A stretch of DNA of 64,000 nucleotides. Origin: Deltaproteobacteria bacterium GWC2_42_11. Its GTDB lineage: Bacteria; Desulfobacterota; GWC2-55-46; UBA9637; GWC2-42-11. The notes under the pieces were generated by a model. The model had not been told where the DNA came from and searched no databases. It saw only the letters and a program-made list of their open reading frames with translations. Each line of letters opens with the position of its first letter. The stretch's first letter is position 1. Shown piece after piece: positions 14,175 through 40,755 of the stretch. The position numbers and the translations under genes are program-made. Location: positions 15,879 through 79,878 of the forward strand of contig MGPS01000070.1 of NCBI GenBank assembly GCA_001797495.1, in the 5' to 3' direction.

Positions 14175-14372
14175 TAGTTTTTCTGGTGCGATTTTATATA
14201 GAGCGTCATAAATAATTACGCATCATAATCAATAAAACACAAGTATTTAATGCGTTTTATTTAAGCCATCAAATAGGTGATGGAGTTCACCTTTAACCGC
14301 TTTAATGGCTGATGACTCCTACAAATTATTGGGAACAGATTTAAAATCTGTCCCCAAAAGGAGGAGGCTGAC

Positions 14373-25018: not shown

Positions 25019-25142
25019 GCAATGGATAATGGTCTACGCTTGCAATAAATTTATCCTGTAATAAATCCTGTAATAAATTTATCCTTGACAACTTGAGTAG
25101 AATTGTATTATGAATTAACACACAATTTAATATAGATATATG

Positions 25143-25259
25143 CTTATTCAGAGTGGTGGAGGGACTGGCCCTGTGAAACCACAGCAACCGGCCTGTTGCA
25201 AACGGGCGGCAGGTGCTAACTCCAGCAAGGTTTGTGATTAAAAAGCCTTGAAAGATAAG
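25143..25259 (+). promoter_or_regulatory. SAM-I (S-box) riboswitch
   Basis: P1 pairs CUUAUUCAGAG with CUUGAAAGAUAAG. Conserved cores GGUGGAGGGACUGGCCC, GUGAAACC, CAGCAACC and GGUGCUAACUCCAGCA are present. Confidence 0.85.
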
Positions 25260-25274
25260 ATTAGGTAATAAAAG

Positions 25275-25307
25275 CCTCTTCTTGATTTCAAGAAGGGGTT
25301 TTTTTTT
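25275..25307 (+). terminator. Riboswitch expression-platform terminator
   Basis: gcctcttcttga-tttc-aagaagggg hairpin followed by a T9 run. Confidence 0.7.
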
Positions 25308-25341
25308 GCAAATCATCAAAAGAAACAATAAGGAGCAGGAT

Positions 25342-26595
25342 ATGAGTTATGTAAAAGGGCTTAAATGCAGGGAATGCGGGAAGGAGTATCCGAAAGAACC
25401 CTTGCATGTATGCGAGTACTGCTTTGGTCCCCTTGAGGTTAATTATGATTATGAGAAGATCAAAAGGGCAGTAAGCAGGGATATAATATCAAAACGACAG
25501 CCGAATATGTGGAGGTACAGAGAACTCCTGCCGATAGACGGTGAGCCGGCAGTAGGTTTTGATGTAGGTTATACCCCTCTGATAAGGGCAAAAAACCTTG
25601 CGAAGGCTCTCGGTGTAAAGGAGTTATATCTGAAAAACGATGCGGTAAATTATCCGACATTATCCTTTAAAGACAGGGTTGTTGCTGTAGCAATATCAAA
25701 GGCATTGGAATTCGATTTTAAGGTTGTTGCATGTGCGTCTACAGGTAACCTTGCAAATTCTGTTGCTGCAAATGCTGCTGCCTGCGGTATGGAAAGTTAT
25801 GTGTTCATCCCTTATGACCTTGAGCAGACAAAGATTTTAGGCACGCTTGTTTACGGCACAAACCTTGTTGCAATAAAGGGTAACTATGACGAAGTAAACA
25901 GGCTGTGCAGCGAGATAGCAGGCAAGTACGGCTGGGCATTCGTAAATATAAATATAAGACCTTATTATGCAGAGGGTTCAAAGGCATTCGGCTATGAGAT
26001 TGCAGAGCAGATGGGCTGGAAACTCCCAAAGCATATTGTTGTGCCAATGGCTGGAGGTTCCCTTATCACAAAGATATGGAAGGCATTCAAGGAATTCCAC
26101 AAACTTGGACTTATTGATAATCTTGGTACAAAGGTCTATGGTGCACAGGCAACAGGGTGTGCCCCGATTACCACAGCAGTGAAGGAAGGTGCAGAACTTA
26201 TAAAGCCTGTAAAACCGAATACAATTGCAAAATCCCTTGCCATAGGAAATCCGGCAGACGGCTTTTATGCTGCAAGGGTGATGAGGGAGAGCGGCGGTTG
26301 GGGAGAGGATGTGTCAGATGAGGAAATTATTGAGTCAATCAGACTTCTTGCTGAGACAGAAGGTATCTTTACTGAGACAGCAGGCGGCGTAACACTTGGG
26401 GTTACTAGAAAACTCATTGAGCAGGGAAGGATACCAAGGGATGAATCAATAGTTGTATCAATTACAGGCAACGGACTCAAGACACAGGAGGCACTTGCAG
26501 GACGGCTAACTGTTTCTATGACAATTGATGCAAAACTTTCTGATTTTGATGAACTACTGAAAAAGCAGAATAAGGTTTATGATGCGAAAGACTAA
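25342..26595 (+). CDS. Threonine synthase family PLP enzyme with N-terminal Zn ribbon; candidate O-phosphohomoserine-dependent homocysteine synthase (MetM-like)
   Basis: SFKDR PLP-lysine motif and the ThrC fold pattern are present. Start is at MSYVKGLKCRECG behind an AAGGAG RBS. The gene sits directly behind the SAM riboswitch and upstream of sulfur-carrier genes. Confidence 0.6.
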   Translation: MSYVKGLKCRECGKEYPKEPLHVCEYCFGPLEVNYDYEKIKRAVSRDIISKRQPNMWRYRELLPIDGEPAVGFDVGYTPLIRAKNLAKALGVKELYLKNDAVNYPTLSFKDRVVAVAISKALEFDFKVVACASTGNLANSVAANAAACGMESYVFIPYDLEQTKILGTLVYGTNLVAIKGNYDEVNRLCSEIAGKYGWAFVNINIRPYYAEGSKAFGYEIAEQMGWKLPKHIVVPMAGGSLITKIWKAFKEFHKLGLIDNLGTKVYGAQATGCAPITTAVKEGAELIKPVKPNTIAKSLAIGNPADGFYAARVMRESGGWGEDVSDEEIIESIRLLAETEGIFTETAGGVTLGVTRKLIEQGRIPRDESIVVSITGNGLKTQEALAGRLTVSMTIDAKLSDFDELLKKQNKVYDAKD

Positions 26596-26677
26596 CCAAT
26601 TTTGCAGGCACGGTTTCAACCGTGCTTTATTTGCACGAATAAATTCGTGCCTACATTTTTGAGGAAGGAGATAAAAT

Positions 26678-27637
26678 ATGAGCATAACAGACCATTTTAT
26701 AGAAGACAAGGTAACCCGAATTCCTGTCAAGAAAGAAGGACAGGATGTTAAGGTAGATTTTAATGAACTCAAATCCGGCGGTTTTATCAAGCAGAGGCAG
26801 AAGGATTTATTTACAGTAAGGCTCCGCTGCCCCGGAGGAAGGCTTACCACAAAGAAACTGATAGAACTTGCAAGGATTGCTGATAAATACAGCAAAAAGG
26901 GTGTTGTGCATTTGAGTTTCAGGCAGTCCCTTGAGATTCTGTATGTTGACTACAGAGACTTTGACGCATTGGTTGCTGACCTGAGAAATGTTGGGCATAA
27001 GGTTGCATCATGCGGCCCAAGGGTCAGGGTTCCGATTGCGTGCGGCGGCTGTGAATACAATCCGAATGGTCTTACGGATACACAAAAGATGGCTGAGATG
27101 GTTGATGAAAAATTCTTCGGTACATCAACCTATCATAAGTTTAAAATGTCGTTTTCAGGATGCCCTATTGACTGTGCCAGGACAAGGGAGGCTGATTTGG
27201 GGTTTCAGGGTGTTGTTGAGCCGGCATGGGATGAGGATACATGCACAGGATGCACAATATGTTCAAGGGCTTGCAAAGAAGGTGCGATTGTTTCACATCC
27301 TGAAACAGGCAAGCCCATATACGACCCTGCAAAGTGCATATACTGCGGAGACTGCATAAGGGCATGTCCTACAGAATCATGGAAGGCAGAAAGATACGGG
27401 CATTTTGTAAGGGTCGGTGGTAAGCACGGCAGACACCCGCGGGAGGCAAATGATGCTGCGGTATTTATCCCTGATGAAAAAGTTTCAAATGTAATAGAAA
27501 AGACGCTTGAGTGGTATAAGATAAACGGCAAAAAGGGAGAGAGGATAGGAACAACCATTGACAGAATAGGATTAAAAAGTTATATAGAGTTTATGAAAAA
27601 TACATTCAGTGATGCAACAATAATTACCGGAGTATAA
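26678..27637 (+). CDS. Small sulfite/nitrite reductase-like hemoprotein with a C-terminal 2x[4Fe-4S] ferredoxin domain
   Basis: Siroheme-[4Fe-4S] Cys motifs (CGGC...SGCPIDCA) are followed by CTGCTICSRAC and CIYCGDCIRACP. Confidence 0.6.
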   Translation: MSITDHFIEDKVTRIPVKKEGQDVKVDFNELKSGGFIKQRQKDLFTVRLRCPGGRLTTKKLIELARIADKYSKKGVVHLSFRQSLEILYVDYRDFDALVADLRNVGHKVASCGPRVRVPIACGGCEYNPNGLTDTQKMAEMVDEKFFGTSTYHKFKMSFSGCPIDCARTREADLGFQGVVEPAWDEDTCTGCTICSRACKEGAIVSHPETGKPIYDPAKCIYCGDCIRACPTESWKAERYGHFVRVGGKHGRHPREANDAAVFIPDEKVSNVIEKTLEWYKINGKKGERIGTTIDRIGLKSYIEFMKNTFSDATIITGV

Positions 27638-27638
27638 A

Positions 27639-27872
27639 ATGGATATAAAGATTGACAAATCCCTTGATTTAAGAAATGTCTTATGCCCAATAAATTTTGT
27701 TAAAACAAAACTTGCATTGGAAACAATGGAAAAGGGTCAGGTGCTTGAGGTTATTATAGATGACGGCGAACCTATTCAGAATGTCCCGAAAAGCGTTAAG
27801 GAAGAGGGGCATAAGATTGTTGAGGTAAAAAAGGAAGACAATCATTTTAGATTGAAGATAGAAAGAAGATAA
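27639..27872 (+). CDS. TusA-like sulfurtransferase
   Basis: LDLRNVLCPINFVKTKLAL matches the TusA/SirA LDxxGLxCPxP motif, with the second Pro replaced by Asn. Confidence 0.6.
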   Translation: MDIKIDKSLDLRNVLCPINFVKTKLALETMEKGQVLEVIIDDGEPIQNVPKSVKEEGHKIVEVKKEDNHFRLKIERR

Positions 27873-27880
27873 AAAACAGA

Positions 27881-27967
27881 TTAAAGACTGAAGACCCGAG
27901 ACTTCAGACACAAGACTCAAGACCACAGATTTAAGACTCAAAACTTTAGTCTATAGTCTTAAGTCTG
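27881..27967. repeat. TAGACT palindromic repeat element (family R3), copy B
   Basis: agactgaagac...aaactttagtctatagtcttaagtctg. Shares agtctatagtct and agac(t/c)-type units with 5187-5300 and 40112-40187. Confidence 0.6.
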
Positions 27968-27986
27968 CATTTAAACGGAGGTTAAG

Positions 27987-28268
27987 ATGGCAATAAAGGT
28001 AAGGATTCCAACACCACTCAGAAAACTTACAAATGGTAAGGATGAGGTAATAGGGGAAGGTAAGAATGTAAAGGAACTTATAAATAACATTGAGACACAG
28101 TATCCGGGATTAAAGGAAAGGATATGCGAGGAGGATGGGAAAATAAGGCGGTTTGTGAATATCTATGTAAATGACGAGGATATAAGATTTAAAAACAGCA
28201 TAGATACAGAACTGAAAGATAGTGATGAGGTTTCAATTATACCGGCAATAGCAGGGGGTAAGTTTTGA
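27987..28268 (+). CDS. MoaD/ThiS-family sulfur carrier protein (CysO/MetO-like)
   Basis: A 93-aa beta-grasp protein ending in the diglycine AIAGGKF is adjacent to E1-like and JAMM genes. Confidence 0.6.
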   Translation: MAIKVRIPTPLRKLTNGKDEVIGEGKNVKELINNIETQYPGLKERICEEDGKIRRFVNIYVNDEDIRFKNSIDTELKDSDEVSIIPAIAGGKF

Positions 28269-28501
28269 AGAAGAGGTTTTACCTTACATACCCAAAGGAA
28301 CTGATAAAAGAGCCGCTGATATATCAGGTAGGTAAACTCTACAATGTTATAACAAATATAAGGCAGGCAACTGTTTCAGATAATATTGGTCTTGTTGCCA
28401 TTGAACTTGACGGAGAGTCTGGAGATATAGAGAAGGCGCTAAACTATTTTGCTGAAAAGGGTGTTAAGGTAGAGCCTATTGAACTGGATGTGGTAGAGTA
28501 G
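28265..28501 (+). CDS. NIL-domain protein
   Basis: The pattern LIYQVGKLYNVITNIRQATV...GLVAIELDG...ALNYFAEKGVKVE resembles the MetN C-terminal NIL domain. Confidence 0.45.
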   Translation: MKKRFYLTYPKELIKEPLIYQVGKLYNVITNIRQATVSDNIGLVAIELDGESGDIEKALNYFAEKGVKVEPIELDVVE

Positions 28502-28623
28502 GTTGAAACAGTTTAGACCGTTCAAACCGTTTAAGTAATTATTATCAGGGTAAATTCGGGATAAGAGTTTGCCCTTTTTGTTTAAGAAGATTCTTTACCA
28601 TTCTTGTAAGGAAAGGTTATAAT

Positions 28624-29562
28624 ATGAGCATACAGCAAAAAATAATCTGGGGTTGCAAAAATCCGAAGGCTTCTGTTCTTGAACTTGTTGGGAATACGCC
28701 TCTTGTCAGGATTAACAGGATTACAGAGGGTTTGAGCAAGGGTGTTCAGGTCTATGCAAAACTTGAATCATATAACCCCGGCGGCTCTGTAAAGGACAGG
28801 GCAGCATTTGGTATGATAAAGGATGCAGAAGATGCAGGCAGACTCACAAAAGATAAGATTATACTTGATTCAACATCAGGGAATACAGGTATTGCTTATG
28901 CATGGATTGGCACTGTTAAGGGTTATTATGTTGAACTTGTTGTGCCTAAAAATGTGAGTGAAGAAAGGAAAAAGATTTTAAAGGCATTTGGTGCAAAGAC
29001 AATCTTTTCAAACCCGATGGAAGGCTCTGACGGTGCCATAAGGCTTGCATGGAAACTTTATGTTGAAAACCCGGATAAATACTGCAAACTAGACCAGTAC
29101 AATAATCCATCCAATCCTCAGGCACACTATGAGACAACAGGTCCTGAGATTATAGAGCAGACAGACGGCAGGGTTACGCACTTTGTTGCAGGGATAGGCA
29201 CAGGCGGAACAATAATGGGTACAGGCAGAAGGCTAAAGGAATTTAACCGTGCAATACAGGTAATAGCAGTTGAACCTGCAACAGCGCTTCATGGTCTTGA
29301 AGGTTTGAAACATATGCCGTCATCAATTGTTCCAGGCATATACCATGAGGGAGAACTTGACAGAAAAATATCAGCGCCAACAGAAGAATCCTATGGAATG
29401 GCAAAGAGACTGGCAAGGGAGGAAGGGCTTTTTGTGGGGCAGTCATCAGGCGCTGCGATGTGGGGGGCGCTTCAGGTTGCAAGGGAACTTGAGGAAGGCG
29501 TGGTTGTTGTTATATTTCCTGATGGGGGGGACAGGTATTTGTCCACAGCATTGTGGGACTAA
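28624..29562 (+). CDS. cysM: Cysteine synthase (CysM/CysK family, PLP-dependent)
   Basis: SVKDRAA lysine motif, TSGNTGIA and GIGTGGT loops are present. Confidence 0.8.
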   Translation: MSIQQKIIWGCKNPKASVLELVGNTPLVRINRITEGLSKGVQVYAKLESYNPGGSVKDRAAFGMIKDAEDAGRLTKDKIILDSTSGNTGIAYAWIGTVKGYYVELVVPKNVSEERKKILKAFGAKTIFSNPMEGSDGAIRLAWKLYVENPDKYCKLDQYNNPSNPQAHYETTGPEIIEQTDGRVTHFVAGIGTGGTIMGTGRRLKEFNRAIQVIAVEPATALHGLEGLKHMPSSIVPGIYHEGELDRKISAPTEESYGMAKRLAREEGLFVGQSSGAAMWGALQVARELEEGVVVVIFPDGGDRYLSTALWD

Positions 29563-29587
29563 GACAACATTCTGCGAATGTTGAATT

Positions 29588-29687
29588 GTAAATTGAAGAT
29601 TGGAAGTTGGAAATTTTAAAATGGAATAAAAAGACAATTTGCAATTTAAATTTTACAATTTTCATTTTACAATTAGAGCGAAGCGAC
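29588..29687 (+). repeat. 105-bp duplicated leader element, copy 1 (upstream of mec)
   Basis: Near-identical to 30083-30197. It contains tandem gaagattg/gaaaattg octamers, then ttgcaatttaaattttacaattttcattttacaattagagcgaagcgac ending at the start codon. Confidence 0.7.
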
Positions 29688-29688
29688 C

Positions 29689-30099
29689 ATGCTTTATCTA
29701 TCTAAAGACATATATAACGAGATTATCAGCCATGCTGAGAAATCATACCCTTATGAAGGATGCGGTGTTCTTGTAGGCAGGGATAAGAGGGTTGTGAAGA
29801 TTTGTCCTGTTGAGAACATAAACAAAGACAGGGCAAATGACAGGTATGAGATAGACCCAAAGGATTTGCTCAGGGTTGAGAAAGGGGTGTCCGAAAAAGG
29901 GCTGAATGTCCTTGGGTTTTTTCATTCACATCCTGACCATCCTGATATGCCGTCTGAGTTTGACAGACAAAGGGCATGGCAATTTTATTCGTATATGATT
30001 GTATCTGTGCATAATGGAAAATCTGTTTCAGTAAAATCATGGACATTTGAAGATGAAAATGAACCATTCAGAGAGGAGGAGGTAAAGATTGAAGATTGA
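29689..30099 (+). CDS. mec: JAMM/MPN+ metalloprotease (Mec-like sulfur-carrier peptidase)
   Basis: EGCG...HSHPDHPDMPSEFD JAMM motif. Confidence 0.8.
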   Translation: MLYLSKDIYNEIISHAEKSYPYEGCGVLVGRDKRVVKICPVENINKDRANDRYEIDPKDLLRVEKGVSEKGLNVLGFFHSHPDHPDMPSEFDRQRAWQFYSYMIVSVHNGKSVSVKSWTFEDENEPFREEEVKIED

Positions 30100-30197
30100 A
30101 AATTGAAAATTGGAAATTGGAAATTTTAAAATGGAATAAAAAGACAATTTGCAATTTAAATTTTGCAATTTTCATTTTACAATTAGAGCGAAGCGAC
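30083..30197 (+). repeat. 105-bp duplicated leader element, copy 2 (upstream of E1-like gene)
   Basis: See copy 1. The 5' part overlaps the last codons of mec. Confidence 0.7.
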
Positions 30198-31019
30198 ATG
30201 AATTTCACAGAAGAGCAAATAGAGAGATATTCAAGGCATATAATCCTGCCTGAGGTCGGCGGCAAAGGACAGGCAAAGTTATTAACTGCAAAGGTCTTTG
30301 TGCTTGGTGCAGGCGGGCTTGGATCACCTGCACTTTATTACCTTGCTGCAGCAGGTGTAGGCACAATCGGCATAGCAGATGCTGATTGTGTTGATTTATC
30401 TAACCTTCAGAGGCAGATAATCCATTCTACATCAAAAATAGGGCTGCCCAAAGTGGAGTCAGCAAAAAGGACTATTGAAGACTTAAACCCTGATGTAAAG
30501 GTTATTGCATACAACGAAAGGCTCAATATTGGCAACATAACACAGATAATAAGGGATTATGATGTAATTCTTGACGGCAGTGATAATTTCCCAACAAGAT
30601 TTCTGATGAACGATGCCTGCTTTTTTGAAAAAAAGACACTTGTTTCAGGGAGCATGTTCAGGTTTGATGGTCAGGTTACAATATTCCAGCCGCATGAGGG
30701 TAAGCCGTGCTACAGGTGTCTTTACCCTGAGCCCCCGCCAAAAGGGCTTGTACCCAGTTGTCAGGAAGCAGGCGTGCTCGGTGCACTGGCAGGCGTGATA
30801 GGTGTTATACAGGCAGTTGAGGCGATAAAACAGGTTTTAAAGATAGGCGATGAACTTGCAGGATACTTACTTATATTTGATGCACTTGCAATGACATTCA
30901 GAAAGGTTAAGGTCAGGAGAGACCCGCAGTGCAGCCTTTGCGGTGATAATCCGACAATAAAGGAACTGATTATGTATGAAGAGACGTGTGAGATAAGGGA
31001 AAAGAGGTGTGAAAAATAG
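30198..31019 (+). CDS. moeB: ThiF/MoeB-family E1-like sulfur-carrier adenylyltransferase
   Basis: GAGGLGS nucleotide-binding loop and CxxC...CxxC Zn motif are present. Start is taken at MNFTEEQIERYSRH; the track ORF starts inside the upstream repeat. Confidence 0.8.
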   Translation: MNFTEEQIERYSRHIILPEVGGKGQAKLLTAKVFVLGAGGLGSPALYYLAAAGVGTIGIADADCVDLSNLQRQIIHSTSKIGLPKVESAKRTIEDLNPDVKVIAYNERLNIGNITQIIRDYDVILDGSDNFPTRFLMNDACFFEKKTLVSGSMFRFDGQVTIFQPHEGKPCYRCLYPEPPPKGLVPSCQEAGVLGALAGVIGVIQAVEAIKQVLKIGDELAGYLLIFDALAMTFRKVKVRRDPQCSLCGDNPTIKELIMYEETCEIREKRCEK

Positions 31020-31048
31020 ATGGAAATCACGCATTATGGTATTTCTAT

Positions 31049-32263
31049 ATGAATAAGTATAAAACACTGCATAATCCTGCGTACCTCAAGATAGACCTTA
31101 TGCTTAACGGCATAAAGGCTGATAACGAGACTATCCAAAGACTCGGTTTAGACTTAAGATACGGTTATACAGGTGTTACAGGGGGACTGGATATTTTACT
31201 GCCTCATAATACATGGGTTAATGCATCGTTCCTTGAAGAGTTTGCAAAGTCCTCTAAATATGAACTTGTCTTAAGGGATAAAAAGACATTTATAAAGGCA
31301 GGAGATGAATCTGTTAAGGTTGATATTATGCCAAAGCCTGAGTTTTATAAACTGAGCACAGCAACAGGCATCCCTCTTTCAAAGATAGGGGCAATGCACG
31401 GCGGTTATGTGGCAATAACACCTGATACAAGGTGCGAGTTCTTTAACATGAATATAGAATGCAGATACTGTGCCGGGAATTTTAATTCCGGAGGCAGCGG
31501 CAGGGTCTATACAGTTGAAGAGGTTCTTGAGACTGTTGATGCTGCAAATAAGGAAGGCAAGGCAGAAATTGTTTATCTCTCAATCGGTTTTTCAGAGACA
31601 CCTGACGGAGGCATAGAATTTTTAAAACCTTATATAAAGGCGATAAAAAAGCACTTCAACACACTTGTTGCTGTAGAGGCGCTTCCGCCAAAGGAAAACC
31701 ATTTTATAGATGAGACTTATGCAGTAGGCGCTGATTCTGTTCTCTACAACATGGAGATATTTGATGAAAGGCTGTTTAAAGAGATATGTCCAGGAAGGGA
31801 TAGACTTATCGGAAGGGAAAGATACATAGATGCGCTTAAATATGCTGCGAAGGTATTTCCTAACGGCACAGTTGCAACACACCTGATTGTAGGACTTGAA
31901 CCCGCAGAGTCAACAATAAAAGGGATTGACTTCTTTACAGGTATAAGGGTTGTGCCTATACTTCCTATATACAGACCATCTGTCGGGGCTAATCTCCTCA
32001 ATTATAAAGTGCCTTCGCTGGATGATGTGCTGCCTGTTTACAGAGACCTGTATCATGCTGTAAAGAAGAATAAAATAAATATAAATTGGGTTAGGGATAT
32101 AAGTGTAATAACAACCCCTATTGAGGCAAGGTTTTTTGCAAAGACAAAGTTTAATAAGACTCTGATGGAAAGATTTTACAAAACAAAGTTAGGCGTTAAG
32201 ACTGCGTGGGGACTTTCAACATTACGGAGGAAACTGCGGGTTAGAGAAGGCGGGGAAGGATAA
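31049..32263 (+). CDS. Conserved hypothetical protein with a CX8CX2C motif (possible non-canonical radical-SAM/TIM-barrel enzyme)
   Basis: The Cys triad TRCEFFNMNIECRYCAG is followed by glycine-rich SGGSGR. No confident family assignment from sequence alone. Confidence 0.3.
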   Translation: MNKYKTLHNPAYLKIDLMLNGIKADNETIQRLGLDLRYGYTGVTGGLDILLPHNTWVNASFLEEFAKSSKYELVLRDKKTFIKAGDESVKVDIMPKPEFYKLSTATGIPLSKIGAMHGGYVAITPDTRCEFFNMNIECRYCAGNFNSGGSGRVYTVEEVLETVDAANKEGKAEIVYLSIGFSETPDGGIEFLKPYIKAIKKHFNTLVAVEALPPKENHFIDETYAVGADSVLYNMEIFDERLFKEICPGRDRLIGRERYIDALKYAAKVFPNGTVATHLIVGLEPAESTIKGIDFFTGIRVVPILPIYRPSVGANLLNYKVPSLDDVLPVYRDLYHAVKKNKININWVRDISVITTPIEARFFAKTKFNKTLMERFYKTKLGVKTAWGLSTLRRKLRVREGGEG

Positions 32264-32265
32264 TA

Positions 32266-33693
32266 ATGAATGTAGTTATAGACAAAAGACCTATATGGGT
32301 TATACTTTTATCAAGGTCTTTAAGACCTTTGTTTTTTGTAGTTGTTGCCATTATTTTCTGGTATCTTGTAAGTATTCCCACACCGGACGGGCTTGGTTTA
32401 GAGGGACAGAGGACTATAGCGCTTTTTGTTGTGTGCCTTATACTGTGGGTTTCAGGGGTTCTGCCCCTTGCTATAACAAGTCTTCTTGCGATTGTAATGG
32501 TGCCGCTTTTAGGGGTGCTGGATAAAAAGGCAGCATATGCACTTTTTGGGAATGAGGCTGTATTTTTTATACTTGGTGCGTTTATACTTTCAGGCGCTGT
32601 AATGCATTCAGGGCTTGCAGGCAGGACAGCAGTAGTAATAATGAGCAGATTCGGAGAGACGCCAAAGAGACTCATTGCATCCATCTTTTTCCTTGCTGCA
32701 GTTCTCTCGTTTTTTATGTCAGAGCATGCTGTTGCTGCCATGTTCTTCCCGATTGTGCTTGAGATAGCAAAGGGTCTGAATCTAAAGCCAGGAAAATCAG
32801 TTTATGCAAAATCACTCTTTCTTGCACTTGCGTGGGGCTGCATAATTGGCGGTGTTGCAACATTTTTAGGAGGGGCAAGGGTCCCGCTTGCAGTAGGTAT
32901 GCTTAAGGAGGCAACAGGTATAAATATAGGTTTTTTTGAATATACGGCTGCAGCATTTCCAACGGTCTTAATAATGCTGCTTATAGGTTATTTTATGCTT
33001 ACAAAATTTTTACCTTCAGATGTTGAGGACATACATAAGATAAAGGCAGTCTTTGAAAGGAAGATAAAAGAACTTGGGAAGATAGGTTATGCTGAATATG
33101 CAGTAGGCGTCTTAATGGCAGTAACCATATTTTTATGGCTGTTTCTGGGCAGGACAATTGGCATTGCAAATATTGCGATTGCCTCTGTAGTTGTTTTATT
33201 TGTGTTTAAACTTGTAAGATGGAAAGATATTGAAGAGTATGTGAACTGGGGGATAATACTTATGTATGGAGGCGCTATAACACTTGGCGCAGCAATGGAA
33301 AAATCAGGTGCAGCAGCATGGATAGCAAATACAGTTATAAGCGAATGGGCAAGGAGCCCTTTGATAATTATAGCGATACTTTCTTTGCTGACGATACTAC
33401 TGACAGAAGGGATGAGCAATGCCGCTGTTATTGCAATACTTCTGCCTGTGGGGATTGGCATAGCAGGAAAATTTAATCTTGACCCCAGGATTATTACTTA
33501 CACTATTGCAATTCCGGCAGGGCTTGCGTTCTGCTTCCCGATGTCAACACCTGCGAATGCAATAGCAGTATCATCAGGGTATGTAACAGCAAGAGATATG
33601 GCAAAGGCAGGGGTTTTAATGATGATATCAGCATGGGTGCTGTTTAATATAACTGTATTTATTTACTGGCCGCTTATAGGGATAAAAATATGA
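32266..33693 (+). CDS. Anion permease (SLC13/DASS - ArsB/NhaD superfamily), putative sulfate transporter
   Basis: About 12-14 TM segments in an internally repeated architecture. Sits within the sulfur assimilation context. Confidence 0.55.
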   Translation: MNVVIDKRPIWVILLSRSLRPLFFVVVAIIFWYLVSIPTPDGLGLEGQRTIALFVVCLILWVSGVLPLAITSLLAIVMVPLLGVLDKKAAYALFGNEAVFFILGAFILSGAVMHSGLAGRTAVVIMSRFGETPKRLIASIFFLAAVLSFFMSEHAVAAMFFPIVLEIAKGLNLKPGKSVYAKSLFLALAWGCIIGGVATFLGGARVPLAVGMLKEATGINIGFFEYTAAAFPTVLIMLLIGYFMLTKFLPSDVEDIHKIKAVFERKIKELGKIGYAEYAVGVLMAVTIFLWLFLGRTIGIANIAIASVVVLFVFKLVRWKDIEEYVNWGIILMYGGAITLGAAMEKSGAAAWIANTVISEWARSPLIIIAILSLLTILLTEGMSNAAVIAILLPVGIGIAGKFNLDPRIITYTIAIPAGLAFCFPMSTPANAIAVSSGYVTARDMAKAGVLMMISAWVLFNITVFIYWPLIGIKI

Positions 33694-34154
33694 GTTGCGT
33701 ACTTCTAATACTATCAACATCAAGGACATCGCAGAATGCCATTGAATATGCTGTTGACCTTGCAAAAAAGGGAAAGGCTAAACTCGTTGTCCTCTATATA
33801 ATAGAGACTGAACTTACAAATGAGGTCTTTGATAAATTTACAGACATAGGTTTCATTGGCGATAAGCCGTCAACTCAACTGACTGAAGCAATCATGAAGG
33901 AATACCGGCAGCGCGGTTATGAGGAGATGGGTAAGGTTCAAATCAGGGCAATGGAAGAGAATGTTGATTTTGATGCTGTTACGACACAGGGTGATTTTGT
34001 TGAAAAGGCCATTGAAGTGATTGATAGGTACAAGGTTACAACAGCAGTAGCAATAAAAAGGAAGAGGTCTGCATTTTTAAAATATTTTTCAAAATCAGTA
34101 GTTGATGAACTTGTTGAAAAGGCGCCGTGCAAGGTAGAGGTATTTGAAGAGTAA
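33690..34154 (+). CDS. Universal stress protein (UspA family)
   Basis: About 150 aa with the Usp alpha/beta pattern (KLVVLYII...VVDELVEKAPCKVEV). Confidence 0.6.
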   Translation: MSCVLLILSTSRTSQNAIEYAVDLAKKGKAKLVVLYIIETELTNEVFDKFTDIGFIGDKPSTQLTEAIMKEYRQRGYEEMGKVQIRAMEENVDFDAVTTQGDFVEKAIEVIDRYKVTTAVAIKRKRSAFLKYFSKSVVDELVEKAPCKVEVFEE

Positions 34155-34168
34155 AAAAAGGAGATGAT

Positions 34169-34780
34169 ATGATTCAGCAGAAGGCTACAAACATTAAATG
34201 GCATCATGGGAAGATTACAAGAGACGACAGAGTGAAACTTATGAAGCAGAAGGGTGTGACTATATGGCTTACAGGTCTTTCTGGTTCAGGGAAATCAACG
34301 ATTGCTGTTGAACTTGAGCATGCGCTTCTTGAAAACAGACATCAGGCATATATATTAGACGGTGATAATATTAGATATGGTTTGAATAAAAATCTTGGCT
34401 TCTCACCAGAGGACAGGTCTGAAAATATTCGTAGAATTGGCGAGGTTGCAAAACTGTTTACCGATGCAAATATTATAACAATTACAGCATTCATATCACC
34501 ATACAGTGCTGACAGGGACAATGCCAGAAAATTTCAAAAAGAAGGTGAGTTTGTGGAGGTCTATGTGAAATGCCCACTTAAGGTATGCGAGGAGAGGGAT
34601 ACAAAGGGATTATATAAAAAGGCAAGGGCAGGTGAGGTGAAAGAATTTACCGGCATATCAGCGCCATATGAAGAACCCTTAAATTCGGAGATAACCATTG
34701 ATACATCAAAACTTTCTGTTGAGGAGTCAACGAGGGTTATTTTGAATTATCTGGAGAAGAAGGGGTATATAAAATTTTAA
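34169..34780 (+). CDS. cysC: Adenylyl-sulfate kinase
   Basis: P-loop GLSGSGKST, APS-binding FISPY and DGDNIR motifs are present. Confidence 0.9.
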   Translation: MIQQKATNIKWHHGKITRDDRVKLMKQKGVTIWLTGLSGSGKSTIAVELEHALLENRHQAYILDGDNIRYGLNKNLGFSPEDRSENIRRIGEVAKLFTDANIITITAFISPYSADRDNARKFQKEGEFVEVYVKCPLKVCEERDTKGLYKKARAGEVKEFTGISAPYEEPLNSEITIDTSKLSVEESTRVILNYLEKKGYIKF

Positions 34781-34813
34781 TTATAAAGACTGTTTTTTTA
34801 AGCGGGGGGAGTT

Positions 34814-35905
34814 ATGGTCAAGAAGGATATTAATAAAGAATTAGAAAGACTTAAGGCGGAAAAGAATGAACTGGAGAGGATAAATAAGGAGATTGACGGC
34901 AGGGTGCTTGAGCTGTACATGCTTTATAATGTCAGCAAGATACTTAATCTGAGCCTGAACATTGAAGAGATTTTCAACGGCATAATAAATATTATCGGGA
35001 AAACCATTCATATTGACGAGTTCTGTATCATGCTGCTTGATGAAGCCACTCAGAAACTTGTGGTAAGGGCATGGTATCCCAACAGCGGTACACTACCTGA
35101 TATGTCTTTTGATATAGGTGAGGGCATTTCTGGCACTGTGGCAAAAACAGGTAATGCAATGCTGATTCAGGATACAAGAAAAGAGCCGAATTTTATGTTT
35201 TATAAAGGGGTTAAGATGGACATAGGTGCCTTCATGTCCATTCCACTGACAGGTAAGAAAGGGGATGTACTCGGCGTGTTTAACATTCATAAGAAAGAGC
35301 CTTTTTCTTTTACAGAGAACGACAGGAAGTTTTTCCAAGAGGTGGCAAATCAGATAGCGATAGCAGTAGAAAATGCAATAATATACGACAGGGCCCGGGA
35401 GGCTTCAATGCATGACGAACTTACAGGTCTTTATAACAGAAGATATTTTTTTGAGTATATTGAAAAAGAACTGGCAAGGGCGAACAGGTATAAAAAGAGT
35501 TTTTCAATTTTAATGATAGATATAGACAGTTTTAAGAATTTTAATGATAAAAATGGTCACCTCAAGGGTGATAAGGTCTTAAAAGAGACTGCAAAACTGT
35601 TTGTAAGTAACTTAAGGGCTTCTGATGTGGTTGTGCGGTTCGGTGGAGAGGAGTTTATATGCCTTATCCCTGAGACACCCAAAGAGATAGCGGTAACTAC
35701 TGCTGAAAAACTCAGGAGGGCGGTAGAAGAAAACATATATAAAGGCGGTGAGAACCAGCCCGGCGGGAAGGTAACAATTACAATAGGCGTTGCAACATGG
35801 CCTGACGATGCACAGTCTGCAATTGAACTGATTGACTATGCTGATAAGGCTATGTATCTGGGTAAGTGCAAAGGGAAGAATATTGTTTTCCCGCTGGTCA
35901 AATAA
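34814..35905 (+). CDS. GAF-domain diguanylate cyclase (GGDEF)
   Basis: A coiled-coil and GAF N-terminal half precede a C-terminal GGDEF domain with an intact RFGGEEF active site. Confidence 0.8.
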   Translation: MVKKDINKELERLKAEKNELERINKEIDGRVLELYMLYNVSKILNLSLNIEEIFNGIINIIGKTIHIDEFCIMLLDEATQKLVVRAWYPNSGTLPDMSFDIGEGISGTVAKTGNAMLIQDTRKEPNFMFYKGVKMDIGAFMSIPLTGKKGDVLGVFNIHKKEPFSFTENDRKFFQEVANQIAIAVENAIIYDRAREASMHDELTGLYNRRYFFEYIEKELARANRYKKSFSILMIDIDSFKNFNDKNGHLKGDKVLKETAKLFVSNLRASDVVVRFGGEEFICLIPETPKEIAVTTAEKLRRAVEENIYKGGENQPGGKVTITIGVATWPDDAQSAIELIDYADKAMYLGKCKGKNIVFPLVK

Positions 35906-35923
35906 TTCAAGAGGGCTGCAAAT

Positions 35924-36640
35924 ATGAGGATTGAAGACCTTACAGAAGAGACGTTAAAACAACTGAATGCAATGCCTGCAGATGAACTCATCAGATGGGC
36001 ATTTGATAATTTTGGTGAAAGGGCTGCAATAGGCACTAGTTTTCAATTGACAGGCACAGTAATTATTGATATTGCCAACAGGCATTTAAAAAAAATCAGG
36101 GTGTTTACTATAGATACCCTGCGGCTGCACCCAGAGACATATGAGGCACTCAATAATACTGAAGAAAGATATGGGTTGGCAGTGGAGAGGTTTTACCCTG
36201 ATGAAGATACATTAAAAAATATGCTGGAAAGGTTTGGAGAATACCTCTTTTTCATGGACAAGGCTAAACAGGAATACTGCTGTTTTGTACGAAAGGTTGA
36301 GCCGAACAGGCGCGCACTTAAAACACTTGATGTCTGGATAACAGGTTTGAGGAGAGACCAGTCGGATTACAGGAAAGATGTGCCAAAGGCATCTGTAATT
36401 GAAGAGGACAGCAGGAAGATATTAAAGATATCTCCGCTTGCTGACTGGGATATGGATAAGATATGGCACTATATAAAAGAGAACAATGTGCCATACAATA
36501 AACTCTTTGATATGGACTATGACAGCATCGGCTGCATAATATGCTCAACACCCCTTGTTGAAGGCGAGCCGCCCCGCTCAGGCAGGTGGAGGTGGTTTCA
36601 TAAAGAGGATGATAAGAAGGAGTGCGGGATACATAAATAG
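35924..36640 (+). CDS. cysH: Phosphoadenosine phosphosulfate / adenylylsulfate reductase (thioredoxin-dependent)
   Basis: PAPS_reduct fold with a C-terminal ECGIH catalytic Cys motif. Confidence 0.8.
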   Translation: MRIEDLTEETLKQLNAMPADELIRWAFDNFGERAAIGTSFQLTGTVIIDIANRHLKKIRVFTIDTLRLHPETYEALNNTEERYGLAVERFYPDEDTLKNMLERFGEYLFFMDKAKQEYCCFVRKVEPNRRALKTLDVWITGLRRDQSDYRKDVPKASVIEEDSRKILKISPLADWDMDKIWHYIKENNVPYNKLFDMDYDSIGCIICSTPLVEGEPPRSGRWRWFHKEDDKKECGIHK

Positions 36641-36775
36641 TTCACGCTGAAGAATGTCCATCTGCGGCGTTGTTGCTGCAGCTTCTGCGCTCAACATACT
36701 ACAAAGTATGCCTCGCTTGAAGCCTTGCTCCGCCTTGCATCTGTGCCATTCTTGAGCATGAACTTGTTGTGAAGT
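36638..36775 (+). repeat. Dispersed intergenic repeat family R2, shorter copy
   Basis: agttcacgctga...ctgcggcgttgttgctgcagcttctgcgctcaacatactacaaagtatgcctcgcttgaagccttgctccgccttgca. It begins at the cysH stop codon. Confidence 0.65.
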
Positions 36776-36805
36776 ATTTTCATTTTAGAAAAGGAGGCAT
36801 AAATA

Positions 36806-37963
36806 ATGCCAGGTTTGATTGAGCCGCATGGCGGTAAACTTGTAAACATGATACTGGAGGGAAAGGAGAGAGAAGATGCTCTAGAGAGGTCAAAGAAACT
36901 TAAGAAGGTGATTTTGAATGACAGGGAAGTTTCTGATATTGAGATGATTGCAATCGGTGCTTTCAGTCCTTTGGACGGCTTTATGAAAAGGGATGACTAC
37001 CACAGTGTTATGGACAATATGAAACTATCAAATGGTCTTCCGTGGACAATACCTATTACCCTGTCAGTTACAAATGATGAGGCAGCGGATCTGAAGGAAG
37101 GGGAAGATGTAAGCCTTGTCAATAAAGATGGGGAGATACTTGCTGTTATGCAGATTGAAGAAAAGCACAACCACGATAAGGAAAAGGAGTCGCTGCAGGT
37201 TTATGGGACAGGGGATATGGCACATCCCGGTGTTGCAAAGGTTTTTGAGATGAGAGATGTCCTGCTTGGAGGCAGGGTATCAGTTGTGCACAGGATAAAA
37301 CAGGAAAAATTTAATCAATACAGGCTTGACCCAGAAGAAACAAGGACGTTATTCAAGGAGAAGGGATGGAAAAGGGTTGTAGGTTTCCAGACAAGAAATC
37401 CTATACACAGGGCACATGAATATATCCAGAAATGTGCGATGGAGGTTGTTGACGGACTGATGATACACCCGATTGTAGGTGAGACAAAGGGTGATGATAT
37501 ATCTGCAGATGTAAGGATGAAATGCTACGAGGTTCTCCTTGAAAACTATTATCCGAAAGACAGGGTTATGCTTGTTGTTAATCCTGCAGCGATGAGGTAT
37601 GCAGGCCCAAAAGAGGCAATATTCCATGCCCTTATAAGGAAGAACTACGGTTGTACCCATTTTATTGTGGGGAGAGACCATGCAGGGGTTGGCAACTACT
37701 ACGGTTCCTTCGATGCCCATTATATATTTGATGAGTTTGACCCGCAGGAGATAGGCATAACACCGATGTTCTTTGACCATACATTCTACTGCAAAAGATG
37801 TGAAAGTATGACGTCGTACAAGACATGCCCGCATGACTCCAGTTGTCATATTACGCTTTCCGGGACAAAGGTTAGGGAGATGCTGAAGGCAGGAGTCATC
37901 CCGCCTGCTGAGTTTTCAAGACATGAGGTTGCAAAGATTTTAATAGATGCGATGAAGCAGTAG
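36806..37963 (+). CDS. sat: Sulfate adenylyltransferase (ATP sulfurylase)
   Basis: QTRNPIHRAHE and GRDHAG motifs are present. Confidence 0.9.
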   Translation: MPGLIEPHGGKLVNMILEGKEREDALERSKKLKKVILNDREVSDIEMIAIGAFSPLDGFMKRDDYHSVMDNMKLSNGLPWTIPITLSVTNDEAADLKEGEDVSLVNKDGEILAVMQIEEKHNHDKEKESLQVYGTGDMAHPGVAKVFEMRDVLLGGRVSVVHRIKQEKFNQYRLDPEETRTLFKEKGWKRVVGFQTRNPIHRAHEYIQKCAMEVVDGLMIHPIVGETKGDDISADVRMKCYEVLLENYYPKDRVMLVVNPAAMRYAGPKEAIFHALIRKNYGCTHFIVGRDHAGVGNYYGSFDAHYIFDEFDPQEIGITPMFFDHTFYCKRCESMTSYKTCPHDSSCHITLSGTKVREMLKAGVIPPAEFSRHEVAKILIDAMKQ

Positions 37964-38000: not shown

Positions 38001-38975
38001 ATGTCAAAAGGACCTATTTCAAAATTTATTGAGACGCATTATCTGCACTTTAATGCTGCTGTGCTTGTGGATGCTGCGAAGGCATACGAGTCGCATATAA
38101 ACGAACGCGGAAAGATGATGATAACCCTTGCAGGGGCAATGAGCACTGCGGAACTCGGGAAATCTCTATCTGAGATGATACGAAAGGACAAGGTTCATAT
38201 TATTACATGCACAGGTGCTAATATTGAGGAGGATGTCTTCAATCTTGTGGCACATAATTACTATAAGAGGGTTCCGCATTACCGCGAGTTAAGTCCTGAT
38301 GATGAGTGGAATCTTATGCAGGATGGTTTCAACCGTGTAACTGATACCTGTATTCCTGAAGATGAGGCAATCAGGAGGATAGAGCGCCATATATTTGACC
38401 TGTGGAAGGACGCTGACAGAAGCGGCAAAAGATATCTGCCCCATGAATATTTTTATCAGTTGTTGAAAAGCGGGGTATTAAAACAATATTATCAGATTGA
38501 CCCAAAAGACTCATGGCTTCTTACTGCATGTGAAAAGAACCTTCCTGTTATTGTGCCGGGCTGGGAAGATTCAACACTCGGAAATATCTTTGCCTCATAT
38601 TGTGTAACAGGCGAGTTAAAAGCGGTTACTGTAAAATCAGGGATAGAATACATGGTATCTCTTGCTGACTGGTACATGGAAAATTCAAAGGGGAAGGGAA
38701 TCGGCTTTTTCCAGATAGGAGGAGGTATTGCAGGTGATTTTCCAATATGTGTTGTGCCCATGCTTAGGCAGGATCTGAAAAAGGCTGATACACCTTTCTG
38801 GAGTTACTTCTGCCAGATTTCTGATTCCACAACAAGTTACGGCTCATATTCCGGCGCAGCGCCAAATGAAAAGATAACATGGGGTAAGTTGAGTAAAAAT
38901 ACACCAAGATTCATCATTGAATCAGATGCGAGTATAGTTGCACCGCTTGTGTTTGCATGGGTGCTGGGATGGTAA
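38001..38975 (+). CDS. Deoxyhypusine synthase-like protein (homospermidine synthase-like)
   Basis: Deoxyhypusine synthase family pattern (GAMSTAELG...ITCTGANIEED...GGGIAGDF). Confidence 0.65.
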   Translation: MSKGPISKFIETHYLHFNAAVLVDAAKAYESHINERGKMMITLAGAMSTAELGKSLSEMIRKDKVHIITCTGANIEEDVFNLVAHNYYKRVPHYRELSPDDEWNLMQDGFNRVTDTCIPEDEAIRRIERHIFDLWKDADRSGKRYLPHEYFYQLLKSGVLKQYYQIDPKDSWLLTACEKNLPVIVPGWEDSTLGNIFASYCVTGELKAVTVKSGIEYMVSLADWYMENSKGKGIGFFQIGGGIAGDFPICVVPMLRQDLKKADTPFWSYFCQISDSTTSYGSYSGAAPNEKITWGKLSKNTPRFIIESDASIVAPLVFAWVLGW

Positions 38976-39140
38976 AATAGTTAACGTTGAAAATACCCCG
39001 GCCCATTGCTTTGCAATGGGTGCCCCGTGCGTTGTCGCTGCGGCTTCTGCGCTCAACATACTGCAAAAGTATGCCCCCCGACAGTTTCAATCGGGGGTTT
39101 GCTCCGCCTTGCAGATGGGCAATTTTTGAGCGTCAACTAC
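38976..39140 (+). repeat. Dispersed intergenic repeat family R2, full-length copy
   Basis: aatagttaacgttgaaaatacccc...cccattgctttgcaatgggtgccccgtgcgttgtcgctgcggcttctgcgctcaacatactgcaaaagtatgcc...ttgctccgccttgcagatgggcaatttttgagcgtcaac. Confidence 0.7.
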
Positions 39141-39174
39141 CAATAAAATGTATTGTTAAGAGGTAGAGTATATA

Positions 39175-40131: not shown

Positions 40132-40187
40132 AGTAGACCATAGACTAAAGACTAAAAAGTCTAAAGTCTATAGTCTAAAGTCTAAAC
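40112..40187. repeat. TAGACT palindromic repeat element (family R3), copy C
   Basis: gcagactatagactttaaagtagaccatagactaaagactaaaaagtctaaagtctatagtctaaagtctaaac. It supplies the last codons and stop of speB. Confidence 0.65.
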
Positions 40188-40206
40188 AAGAAGGAGGACT
40201 TGAAAA

Positions 40207-40755
40207 GTGAGCATGGTGCCAAGAAGGGTATTCTTTACAAAGGGTGTAGGGACGCATAAGGAAGAACTCCATTCCTTTGAACTCGCGCTCAGGGATGCAG
40301 GCATAGAAAAACTCAATATCGTAACAGTCTCCAGCATATTCCCGCCGGGCTGTAAGGTTATTTCAAGAACTCAAGGATTAAAGATGCTTTCCCCCGGTCA
40401 GGTAACATTCTGCGTGATGAGCAGGTGCTGCAGTAACGAGCCCAGGAGGCTCATGGCAGCATCCGTAGGGTGTGCAATACCAATGGATAAAAAGGTATAT
40501 GGATACTTAAGCGAGCACCATGCCTTTGGCCAGACTGATAAGTTTGCAGGCGACTATGCAGAAGACCTTGCTGCAGCAATGCTTGCCTCCACACTGGGTA
40601 TAGAACTTGATGAGAACCTTGGGTGGGACGAGAAGAAAGAGATTTACAGGATAAGCGACAAGATAGTAAGAACAACAAACATCACGCAGTCGGCAATAGT
40701 AAAGGGTGACGGCAGGTATACAACCGTGATTGCTGCTGCTGTACTTATTCTTTAA
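40207..40755 (+). CDS. pdaD: Pyruvoyl-dependent arginine decarboxylase
   Basis: About 180 aa. The N-terminal pattern FFTKGVG...[27 protein letters not shown] matches the archaeal-type PdaD family. Confidence 0.65.

Follow-up and report, generated by a model that had tools for sequence, protein, structure and literature searches.

The methionine pathway of Wolinella succinogenes, a thiocarboxylate route operated by HcyS, HcyD, HcyF and MetY, was reportedly described by Krishnamoorthy and Begley in 2011. A gene neighbourhood known from Wolinella and Geobacter had earlier been defined as class 4e; it comprises a carrier, a JAB peptidase, an E1 lacking a rhodanese domain, SirA, a sulfite reductase, sulfate genes and an O-acetylhomoserine sulfhydrylase, with SirA being proposed as a substitute for the rhodanese (Iyer, Burroughs and Aravind, 2006). 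More recently the MetM/MetO homocysteine pathway was reported in Streptomyces albulus (Hasebe et al., 2024, Appl Environ Microbiol 90:e01247-24), whose authors are reported to place it in other bacteria and archaea as well. Papers citing this work describe a SAM (S-adenosylmethionine) riboswitch upstream, metO lying beside metM, and a MetM that is ‘often misannotated’ as threonine synthase. The pathway is also included in GapMind 2026, where carrier maturation is ascribed to Mec. Here we describe a locus within a 64 kb stretch of DNA (the window), which is matched by public metagenome-assembled genomes (MAGs) named ‘Deltaproteobacteria bacterium GWC2_42_11’ and similar. Judged from homology and gene context, this locus is a predicted MetM/MetO-type, O-phosphohomoserine-dependent synthase set within a Wolinella-type sulfur-relay neighbourhood. 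Domains were called with Pfam and NCBIfam profiles and RNAs with Rfam, and the elements at the centre of the locus are as follows.

25141..25261, + strand: SAM-I riboswitch aptamer (Rfam RF00162, 81.5 bits, E 1e-17, full-length model match)
about 25270..25308, + strand: intrinsic terminator of the riboswitch expression platform, a 15-bp hairpin (-19.1 kcal/mol) and then U9
25342..26595, + strand: ThrC-like pyridoxal phosphate (PLP) enzyme with an N-terminal four-cysteine zinc ribbon (PALP; TIGR00260, ~296 bits)
26678..27637, + strand: small sulfite reductase, 319 aa (NIR_SIR_ferr, NIR_SIR and two [4Fe-4S] domains)
27639..27872, + strand: TusA/SirA sulfurtransferase with Cys-Pro motif (PF01206, 82.8 bits)
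27987..28268, + strand: ThiS/MoaD carrier of the CysO/MetO type, ending AIAGG-KF (PF02597)
28265..28501, + strand: stand-alone NIL-domain protein, 78 aa, no cysteine (PF09383)
28624..29562, + strand: CysM-type cysteine synthase, a PLP enzyme (TIGR01138, 394.5 bits)
29689..30099, + strand: JAMM/MPN+ metallopeptidase, Mec/HcyD-like, Prok-JAB (PF14464, 92.9 bits)
30198..31019, + strand: E1-like adenylyltransferase (ThiF/MoeB), 273 aa (PF00899, 273.7 bits, the only domain)
31049..32263, + strand: variant radical SAM protein with CX8CX2C in place of CX3CX2C (NF045502 ‘variant rSAM’, 201.6 bits)

A first-pass annotation of this DNA had listed the riboswitch and these genes, all of which were recovered in their places above curated thresholds when profile hidden Markov models (HMMs) were run. 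It had counted a block of eight genes; with the variant radical SAM gene included there are nine, all co-directional and either separated by short gaps or overlapping. The order ThrC-like enzyme, sulfite reductase, TusA, ThiS, NIL, CysM, JAMM, E1, radical SAM protein and DASS transporter is repeated in at least seven fully covered loci from other species, and two further loci show the same order but stop at a contig end. A chance arrangement is unlikely because the order recurs in other species.

The aptamer scores well above the RF00162 gathering score of 44.4 bits and its four-way junction is visible in the minimum free energy (MFE) fold. The riboswitch and terminator claimed in the first-pass annotation are thus borne out and, with a covariance match above the gathering score and an expression platform present, SAM binding is predicted. 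MFE folding resolved no competing antiterminator pairing for this riboswitch. By iterative nhmmer, 45 of 84 related loci have a SAM-I riboswitch 5′ of the ThrC-like gene or of the operon that contains it, and 39 of the 84 have a homologous riboswitch at the position equivalent to that of the window. Rfam agreed with these calls in all seven close-relative loci checked, while in seven nhmmer-negative loci that were scanned no Rfam riboswitch of any class was present, and no second regulatory RNA was found in the loci of close relatives. SAM riboswitches are markers of methionine and SAM genes. A weak promoter-like site read by eye lies about 30 nt 5′ of the aptamer (TTGACA-15 nt-TATTAT, 25085..25111, + strand); with its 15-nt spacer it falls outside the listing of the promoter scan, which used a spacer window of 16-18 nt. 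Short direct repeats directly precede its -35-like TTGACA (25044-25084): two tandem copies of CCTGTAATAAAT, with AATAAATTTATCC, likewise present twice, flanking them.

When one genome was scanned for each species, 80 loci were found that encode proteins 64-84% identical to the ThrC-like protein of the window. These come from the Thermodesulfobacteriota, Zetaproteobacteria (including the cultured Mariprofundus micogutta), Nitrospirota, NC10, Margulisiibacteriota, Omnitrophota, Armatimonadota, Acidimicrobiia, Elusimicrobiota and others, more than ten phyla overall. A neighbour-joining (NJ) tree and identity matrix were built from the window family, a protein of the actinomycete Nonomuraea gerenzanensis, four crystallised ThrCs (from Aquifex, Thermus, Bacillus subtilis and Mycobacterium tuberculosis) and five ThrC paralogues co-located with members of the family. 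In the NJ tree the window protein makes up one monophyletic group with those of 79 species and that of Nonomuraea, identity inside the group being 50-84%. The four crystallised ThrCs and the five co-located paralogues form a separate clade with 57-87% identity inside, and identity between the two clades is 33-41%. At positions that are invariant in ThrC (T. thermophilus numbering) the replacements T88L, S155N, N157R, R160Y, Q164S, N191L and W249G are found throughout the MetM-like clade, which has kept its PLP lysine and S-T-G-N loop; the four zinc-ribbon cysteines are invariant in relatives. In T. thermophilus ThrC we take T88, S155 and R160 to belong to the wall of the phosphate site, which directs the addition of water. 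If these residue roles hold, the pocket governing reaction specificity would have been rebuilt in the MetM-like clade. The window protein thus neither groups with verified ThrCs nor carries the full set of their invariant active-site residues, and this placement against bona fide ThrCs, which had been proposed as a check on the first-pass annotation, indicates that it is not a housekeeping threonine synthase.

Further evidence came from five Nitrospirota loci (L070, L048, L057, L072 and L077) in which a canonical ThrC gene is located just 3′ of those for the ThrC-like protein, carrier and NIL protein. In one of these, from the Thermodesulfovibrionales (L070, 8431-15505), the order is TusA, E1, JAMM, MetM-like enzyme, carrier, NIL, true ThrC (TIGR00260, 330 bits), HomK (a proposed homoserine kinase; TIGR02535, 568 bits) and aspartate kinase. 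The ThrC-like protein and genuine ThrC therefore coexist, since both are encoded side by side, and here the ThrC-like gene adjoins genes that supply O-phosphohomoserine. This adjacency of thrC, homK and aspartate kinase fits the use of O-phosphohomoserine and carrier thiocarboxylate that is predicted for the window enzyme. In L072 the ThrC and HomK genes read through as one open reading frame (ORF). No second ThrC, nor a paralogue of any other protein of the locus, was found within the 64 kb window.

A link to the published system is provided by the chromosome of Nonomuraea gerenzanensis, which was located by tblastn of plasmid records (53.6% identity). Here a ThrC-like gene stands behind a SAM-I riboswitch (68.7 bits), and next comes a gene for a 91-aa carrier ending AVAGG. 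The Nonomuraea protein is 52-54% identical to the window protein and falls inside its clade and, when it was used as a query, the best 120 matches were all Streptosporangiales proteins named ‘threonine synthase’. A PDB search found no solved structure of MetM. As described in papers that cite it, the S. albulus system shares with the window a ThrC-homologous PLP enzyme whose gene follows a SAM riboswitch, an adjoining gene for a ThiS/MoaD-type carrier, predicted in the window to be matured by a JAMM protein (Mec in S. albulus) and activated by an E1, and the misnaming of the enzyme as threonine synthase. More generally the two systems have in common a lineage distinct from canonical ThrC, a Gly-Gly carrier encoded with the enzyme, and SAM riboswitch control. 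Because of the separation of the clades, the coexistence with true ThrC, the SAM riboswitch and the actinomycete anchor, we consider it probable that the ThrC-like protein is a carrier-dependent, MetM-type homocysteine synthase. The first-pass annotation had reached the same assignment, and the separate clade, the Nonomuraea locus, the riboswitches at 45 of 84 loci and a carrier gene at 67 of 68 are all in its favour.

Several observations pull in the other direction. Orthology to S. albulus MetM is predicted by way of the actinomycete proxy, Nonomuraea, rather than from the sequence of MetM itself. About half of the related loci are without any Rfam riboswitch. The 64 kb window is the part of the genome covered as regards a second thrC or the absence of other homocysteine routes. 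Use of the carrier by CysM, and transfer of sulfur from the sulfite reductase to TusA, are purely conjectural. The protein also passes two threonine-synthase models, TIGR00260 (295.6 bits, cutoff 167) and PRK08197 (308.8 bits, cutoff 303), and a homologue from the cyanobacterium Microcystis has been reported to be a threonine synthase/deaminase in vitro with no rise in methionine in vivo. The Microcystis protein is reported to be 51.6% identical to S. albulus MetM, a figure that is not relative to the window protein. Taken with the conserved PLP lysine and carboxylate-binding S-T-G-N loop, the model scores and the threonine-forming and threonine-deaminating activities in Microcystis may suggest a divergent threonine synthase, or a bifunctional synthase/deaminase, with the carrier serving cysteine through CysM only. 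We regard this as unlikely. The riboswitch in 45 of 84 loci is of a SAM class, and is not a threonine or T-box control; the carrier gene adjoins in 67 of 68 loci, including the CysM-free ones of the Nitrospirota; seven or more ThrC-invariant residues are replaced; and the actinomycete homologue, from a locus arranged like the published metM-metO, falls in this clade too. In the five loci with a canonical ThrC two genes downstream, moreover, there would be no need for a second threonine synthase.

A MetM-type homocysteine synthase also has to be weighed against a ThrC homologue with a different substrate or nucleophile, which might convert O-phosphoserine to cysteate with sulfite, or to cysteine with the carrier thiocarboxylate, and would not make homocysteine. 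Methanogens have recruited ThrC homologues to make cysteate, the next gene downstream of the ThrC-like gene encodes a sulfite-handling enzyme, and the residues of the phosphate pocket are unlike those of ThrC. This is nevertheless very unlikely given that SAM riboswitches mark methionine and SAM genes, that a dedicated CysM or CysK is encoded in the same loci, and that the Nitrospirota neighbours are homoserine kinase and aspartate kinase and not serine-pathway genes. Identity as cysteate synthase itself was rejected, with a model score of 65 bits against a cutoff of 325.

Neighbourhoods combining a carrier, an E1 and a JAB protein include siderophore and thiosugar pathways, and the carrier, E1, JAMM and PLP enzymes of the window could in principle make a sulfur-containing secondary metabolite or cofactor of the thioquinolobactin or thiosugar kind. 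The conservation of the enzyme at 64-84% identity over more than ten phyla implies constraint at a housekeeping level, the genes are set among those of sulfate assimilation and the aspartate pathway under SAM riboswitch control, and tailoring, NRPS (non-ribosomal peptide synthetase) and CoA-ligase genes are absent from the locus. This possibility can therefore be considered highly improbable, and a homocysteine synthase of the MetM type is the reading with which we continue.

The locus departs from the MetM/MetO system in several respects. The Streptomyces E1 is MoeZ, an E1 with a rhodanese domain, whereas the window E1 is without one and TusA is present; TusA and the small sulfite reductase are encoded inside the riboswitch-controlled unit; the window carrier has two residues past the GG; NIL is a near-constant third partner in the window family but is absent from the Nonomuraea locus; and genes for CysM, JAMM, E1 and sulfate assimilation are clustered with that of the enzyme. 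With the Wolinella system the window shares a carrier with one or more residues after the GG, which a JAMM protein removes in Wolinella and would remove in the window, and an E1 without rhodanese, and with Wolinella and class 4e the presence of SirA/TusA, sulfite reductase, ATP sulfurylase, adenosine phosphosulfate (APS) kinase and phosphoadenosine phosphosulfate (PAPS) reductase genes in one neighbourhood. The terminal enzyme of Wolinella is, however, the O-acetylhomoserine sulfhydrylase MetY, in place of which the window has a ThrC homologue, and NIL, the coupled radical SAM and DASS proteins and CysM are additional in the window. No Cys/Met-metabolism PLP domain of the MetY type was found by Pfam in the genes of 25282-37963, the PLP enzymes there being the ThrC-like protein and CysM.

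The carrier gene is present in 67 of the 68 related loci that have at least 1.5 kb of sequence downstream of the enzyme gene. The first-pass annotation had the carrier ending in GG, but a check of start and stop gave ...AIAGGKF as the real end, with two residues after the GG, so that trimming is needed. The other components of the protein-thiocarboxylate relay that it had proposed (carrier, E1, JAMM, TusA and sulfite reductase) are all present. Residues past the GG are the rule in the family, being found in 67 of 72 complete related carriers (one residue in 21, two in 18 and others up to eleven) with the remaining five ending in GG, and a JAMM gene lies within 10 kb in 40 of the 67 loci whose carriers have such residues. 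The JAMM motif HxH-x7-S-xx-D is intact, HSHPDHPDMPSEFD being the motif as read from the sequence. The best solved relatives of the carrier are the CysO proteins of Amycolatopsis orientalis (86 bits) and M. tuberculosis (78 bits). Compared with the three carriers of one NC10 genome, the window carrier is closest (58%) to that encoded beside the ThrC-like gene and less similar (40-46%) to those beside CysM. By position and similarity the window carrier is thus assigned to the MetO type. The carrier is fused to the E1 in three, perhaps four, species (L059, L064, L075 and perhaps L053).

In the E1 of the window ThiF is the sole domain, the public gene call also being of 273 aa. Since this E1 has no rhodanese domain, TusA is a likely substitute for it, by analogy with the role proposed for SirA in class 4e. 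The sulfite reductase is homologous to the C-terminal half of Fsr but is encoded on its own; its best solved relative is 7npa/7np8 (residues 325-613, 138 bits) and its scores are under the cutoffs for AsrC and DsrAB. The tusA gene starts 1 nt after that of the sulfite reductase, and in about 14 related loci from the Zetaproteobacteria, Omnitrophota, Elusimicrobiota and Saganbacteria the two appear to be a single ORF. The architecture was confirmed for L062 (4351-6708), where a NirA-type sulfite reductase bears a C-terminal TusA in a protein of ~785 aa; fusions as in L062 are also seen in L034, L044, L046, L050, L052, L058 and L073 (Zetaproteobacteria, Mariprofundus). Such fusions argue for a direct coupling of sulfite reductase and TusA. 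In a MAG of the same species as the window (L002, GCA_003532155.1) the sulfite reductase was called at 5503-6267 as 254 aa without a Pfam match, and is only 83% identical to the window protein where neighbouring genes are 98-100% identical. Misassembly or a disrupted allele might explain this.

The TTG start of the NIL gene overlaps the carrier stop by four bases (TTGA). A programmed frameshift joining the two, at the A-rich run after the stop, was considered and discarded: the A-run comes only after the TGA, and in TTGA a stop and a start simply overlap in the usual way. A NIL protein is encoded in 62 of the 68 related loci, almost always adjoining the carrier, and in 11 species carrier, GG, linker and NIL form a single ORF (beginning at L007 11275, L011 8167, L019 2626, L023 1840, L025 3326, L026 9418, L027 1809, L028 11286, L030 11288, L031 3622 and L036 4729). 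It is known that JAMM proteins release the partners of MoaD-MoaE fusions and, by analogy, the fused NIL would have to be released by JAMM. The window NIL and several close homologues are annotated as ‘FeS-binding protein’ although the family is mostly free of cysteine (61 of 71 aligned sequences have none). The N-I-R/A/G/E/G signature is kept, its asparagine aligning with NNNII in the C2 domain by which MetN binds methionine, and a homologue search returned 78-aa stand-alone proteins only. The NIL protein is thus most likely a small-molecule (methionine or homocysteine) binding subunit, or an adaptor subunit, of the enzyme-carrier pair.

A NIL protein is also tied to homocysteine formation in the DUF39 system of methanogens and Desulfovibrio, which consists of DUF39 (MA1821) and a NIL-ferredoxin (MA1822). 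The window NIL differs in being a 78-aa protein without a ferredoxin (Fer4) domain, from a family most of whose members are free of cysteine, and the substrate of the DUF39 system is aspartate semialdehyde and not O-phosphohomoserine. The DUF39 model had no match among the genes of the locus scanned against Pfam. One homologue of the window NIL bears the name of the DUF39/NIL-ferredoxin pathway in its JGI annotation.

The first-pass annotation had placed the whole cluster under the SAM riboswitch. Two elements between the NIL and CysM genes bear on this.

28547..28585, + strand: terminator-like hairpin and T-run in the NIL-CysM gap (scan and fold)
28594..28623, + strand: promoter-like site TTTACC-18-TATAAT before cysM (scan, 10/12 matches)

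Seven close relatives have GC hairpin and T-run terminators in the same gap, followed by a TTGACA...TATTAT promoter. With these elements in the gap, the riboswitch most likely controls the genes for the ThrC-like enzyme, sulfite reductase, TusA, carrier and NIL only, and cysM, the JAMM, E1, radical SAM and DASS genes and the sulfate genes most likely make up a second unit with its own promoter. The claim of riboswitch control would thus stand for the first five genes but not from CysM onward. This layout in two units fits a carrier dedicated to homocysteine and weakens the idea of a single riboswitch over a joint cysteine and methionine cluster. The cysM promoter of the relatives bears a tandem ACTMAGGTATT, the copies ~28 nt apart (L008 5271-5309, L016 13939-13977, L017 13684-13728, L038 13438-13476, L068 13593-13631, L010 4843 and L014 13506). 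All 12 exact occurrences of this motif in 85 loci are at the cysM promoter and it is probably an operator for some regulator; in the window there is no occurrence above chance. Within the second unit a 103-nt direct repeat, 96% identical between its copies, fills the gaps just 5′ of the starts of the JAMM (29585-29687) and E1 (30095-30197) genes. Each copy can form an extended, imperfect hairpin rich in AT; its last letters, ...TTTTACAATTAGAGCGAAGCGAC, directly adjoin the ATG, and a Shine-Dalgarno sequence is not evident. It was rejected as a conserved regulatory element since beyond the two window copies it is found only in loci of the same species (L001-L003).

CysM of the window is just above the TIGR01138 cutoff (394.5 against 394.2 bits). 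It matches the CysM of Escherichia coli and Salmonella at 250 bits and that of M. tuberculosis, which is specific for O-phosphoserine, at 197 bits. In the Zetaproteobacteria a CysK (453 bits) occupies the position of CysM, and in the Nitrospirota neither CysM nor CysK is found there. The first-pass annotation had recognised the logic of the M. tuberculosis CysO-CysM-Mec+ system in the window. This holds in that a carrier of the CysO family, a PLP enzyme of the CysM family and a JAMM protein are encoded in one locus. It is weakened in that the E1 of M. tuberculosis is of the MoeZ type with a C-terminal rhodanese whereas that of the window is ThiF only, that the window CysM is closer to enterobacterial CysM, and that the window carrier gene lies in a SAM-controlled unit with the ThrC-like gene and not with cysM.

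The genes that follow the radical SAM gene are listed below.

32266..33693, + strand: DASS anion symporter, Na_sulph_symp, 2 nt past the radical SAM gene (PF00939, 194.5 bits; TIGR00785, 257 bits)
33690..34154, + strand: universal stress protein (USP) (PF00582)
34169..34780, + strand: APS kinase CysC (PF01583, 236 bits)
34814..35905, + strand: GAF-GGDEF diguanylate cyclase amid the sulfate-assimilation genes (Pfam)
35924..36640, + strand: (P)APS reductase CysH, with CC...CxxC and ECGIH motifs read by eye (PF01507, 138 bits)
36806..37963, + strand: ATP sulfurylase Sat (PF01747, 331 bits, and PUA_2)

The sat, cysH and cysC genes announced by the first-pass annotation downstream of the block are therefore present, but not as a contiguous trio, being interspersed with DASS, USP and GAF-GGDEF genes. 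No GGDEF homologue was detected between cysC and cysH in the loci of other species, the only GGDEF matches, in L065, being downstream of NIL; the GGDEF gene of the window seems to have been inserted among the sulfate-assimilation genes in its own lineage. The CX8CX2C protein to which the earlier annotation assigned no role can be identified as a variant radical SAM protein coupled to DASS. Its CX8CX2C motif is kept in 12 of 21 related radical SAM ORFs examined, including all close delta relatives. In eight loci of the Zetaproteobacteria with a complete transporter gene the radical SAM and DASS proteins are a single polypeptide (L062 6729-9365, ~880 aa), and these fused radical SAM domains are without the delta-type CX8CX2C spacing. 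The pair is treated here as a putative uptake-side module that is not obviously part of the carrier relay.

Genes past 37963 have polyamine and unrelated functions. Directly 3′ of sat (38001-40755) are genes for a deoxyhypusine synthase-like protein, an arginase-family (agmatinase-like) protein and a pyruvoyl-dependent arginine decarboxylase, followed by three ATP-grasp genes, one weakly RimK-like and two D-Ala-D-Ala-ligase-like. A NAD synthetase gene lies upstream of the locus on the opposite strand. Elsewhere in the window are a 6S RNA gene (9436-9615, + strand, 84.1 bits), a fluoride riboswitch (14267-14328, 62.3 bits) just 5′ of an ORF (14373-15533) placed in the Na+/H+ exchanger family in public calls, and one tRNA gene (53701-53773, - strand).

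From homology and gene context the locus can be read as a route in which a protein thiocarboxylate links sulfate to homocysteine, and perhaps also to cysteine. Sat, CysC and CysH would activate sulfate and take it to sulfite, which the Fsr-C-like sulfite reductase would reduce further, the reduced sulfur then passing to the carrier, probably by way of the TusA cysteine. The carrier, made as GG-KF, would be trimmed by JAMM, adenylated by the E1 and converted to the thiocarboxylate. The ThrC-like PLP enzyme would take O-phosphohomoserine and form PLP-vinylglycine as ThrC does, and addition of the thiocarboxylate sulfur at C-gamma would give homocysteine, which is the MetM/MetO chemistry reported for S. 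albulus. Binding of SAM to the 5′ riboswitch would terminate transcription of the first unit (ThrC-like enzyme, sulfite reductase, TusA, carrier and NIL), with the CysM, JAMM, E1, radical SAM, DASS and sulfate genes being transcribed in the second, separately promoted unit. The cysteine-free NIL protein would act as a conserved third partner, most likely as the methionine/homocysteine-binding or adaptor subunit.

As a tentative extension, the core of the system outside the actinomycetes may be enzyme, carrier and NIL together, with NIL as a cap or adaptor that senses methionine or homocysteine, and with the sulfite reductase handing sulfur to TusA without free sulfide; we put this forward as a doubtful but attractive possibility. 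Were it true, NIL fused to the C-terminal side of the carrier GG would have to be cut away by JAMM ahead of carrier activation, which would add post-translational feedback to the riboswitch, and sulfite would reach homocysteine as protein-bound sulfur.

The pathway itself (2024), the type of neighbourhood (2006 and 2011) and the misannotation of MetM (GapMind 2026) were known before. In the literature searched, Hasebe et al. (2024) excepted, we found no account of a MetM-type enzyme inside a neighbourhood with TusA, sulfite reductase and a rhodanese-less E1, of the NIL partner and its fusions, of the sulfite reductase-TusA and radical SAM-DASS fusions, or of the metM-like/thrC/homK/aspartate kinase arrangement and the broad distribution. 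Nor did that literature yield any report linking NIL to a ThiS/MoaD carrier. A published phylogeny of the MetM-like lineage, in the Microcystis paper, took it to be confined to cyanobacteria. Hypotheses raised by the locus are that NIL is a fixed partner of the carrier, that JAMM releases carrier-NIL and carrier-E1 fusions, that TusA stands in for the rhodanese, and that sulfite reductase and TusA are coupled. As to regulation, one SAM riboswitch is predicted to gate the enzyme, the carrier and the sulfite reductase, with the activating enzymes in a separate unit.

‘Threonine synthase’ is the public name of the best 120 of at least 8000 homologues scored (76-100% identical), and the proteins of the 80 genome species are likewise so named wherever the source gives a name. 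Homocysteine synthesis has been reported to be unexplained in several autotrophs (Price et al., 2018), and the name extends to cultured autotrophs such as Mariprofundus. If these proteins are homocysteine synthases, pathway reconstructions in these groups would wrongly predict gaps in methionine synthesis or a spare thrC.

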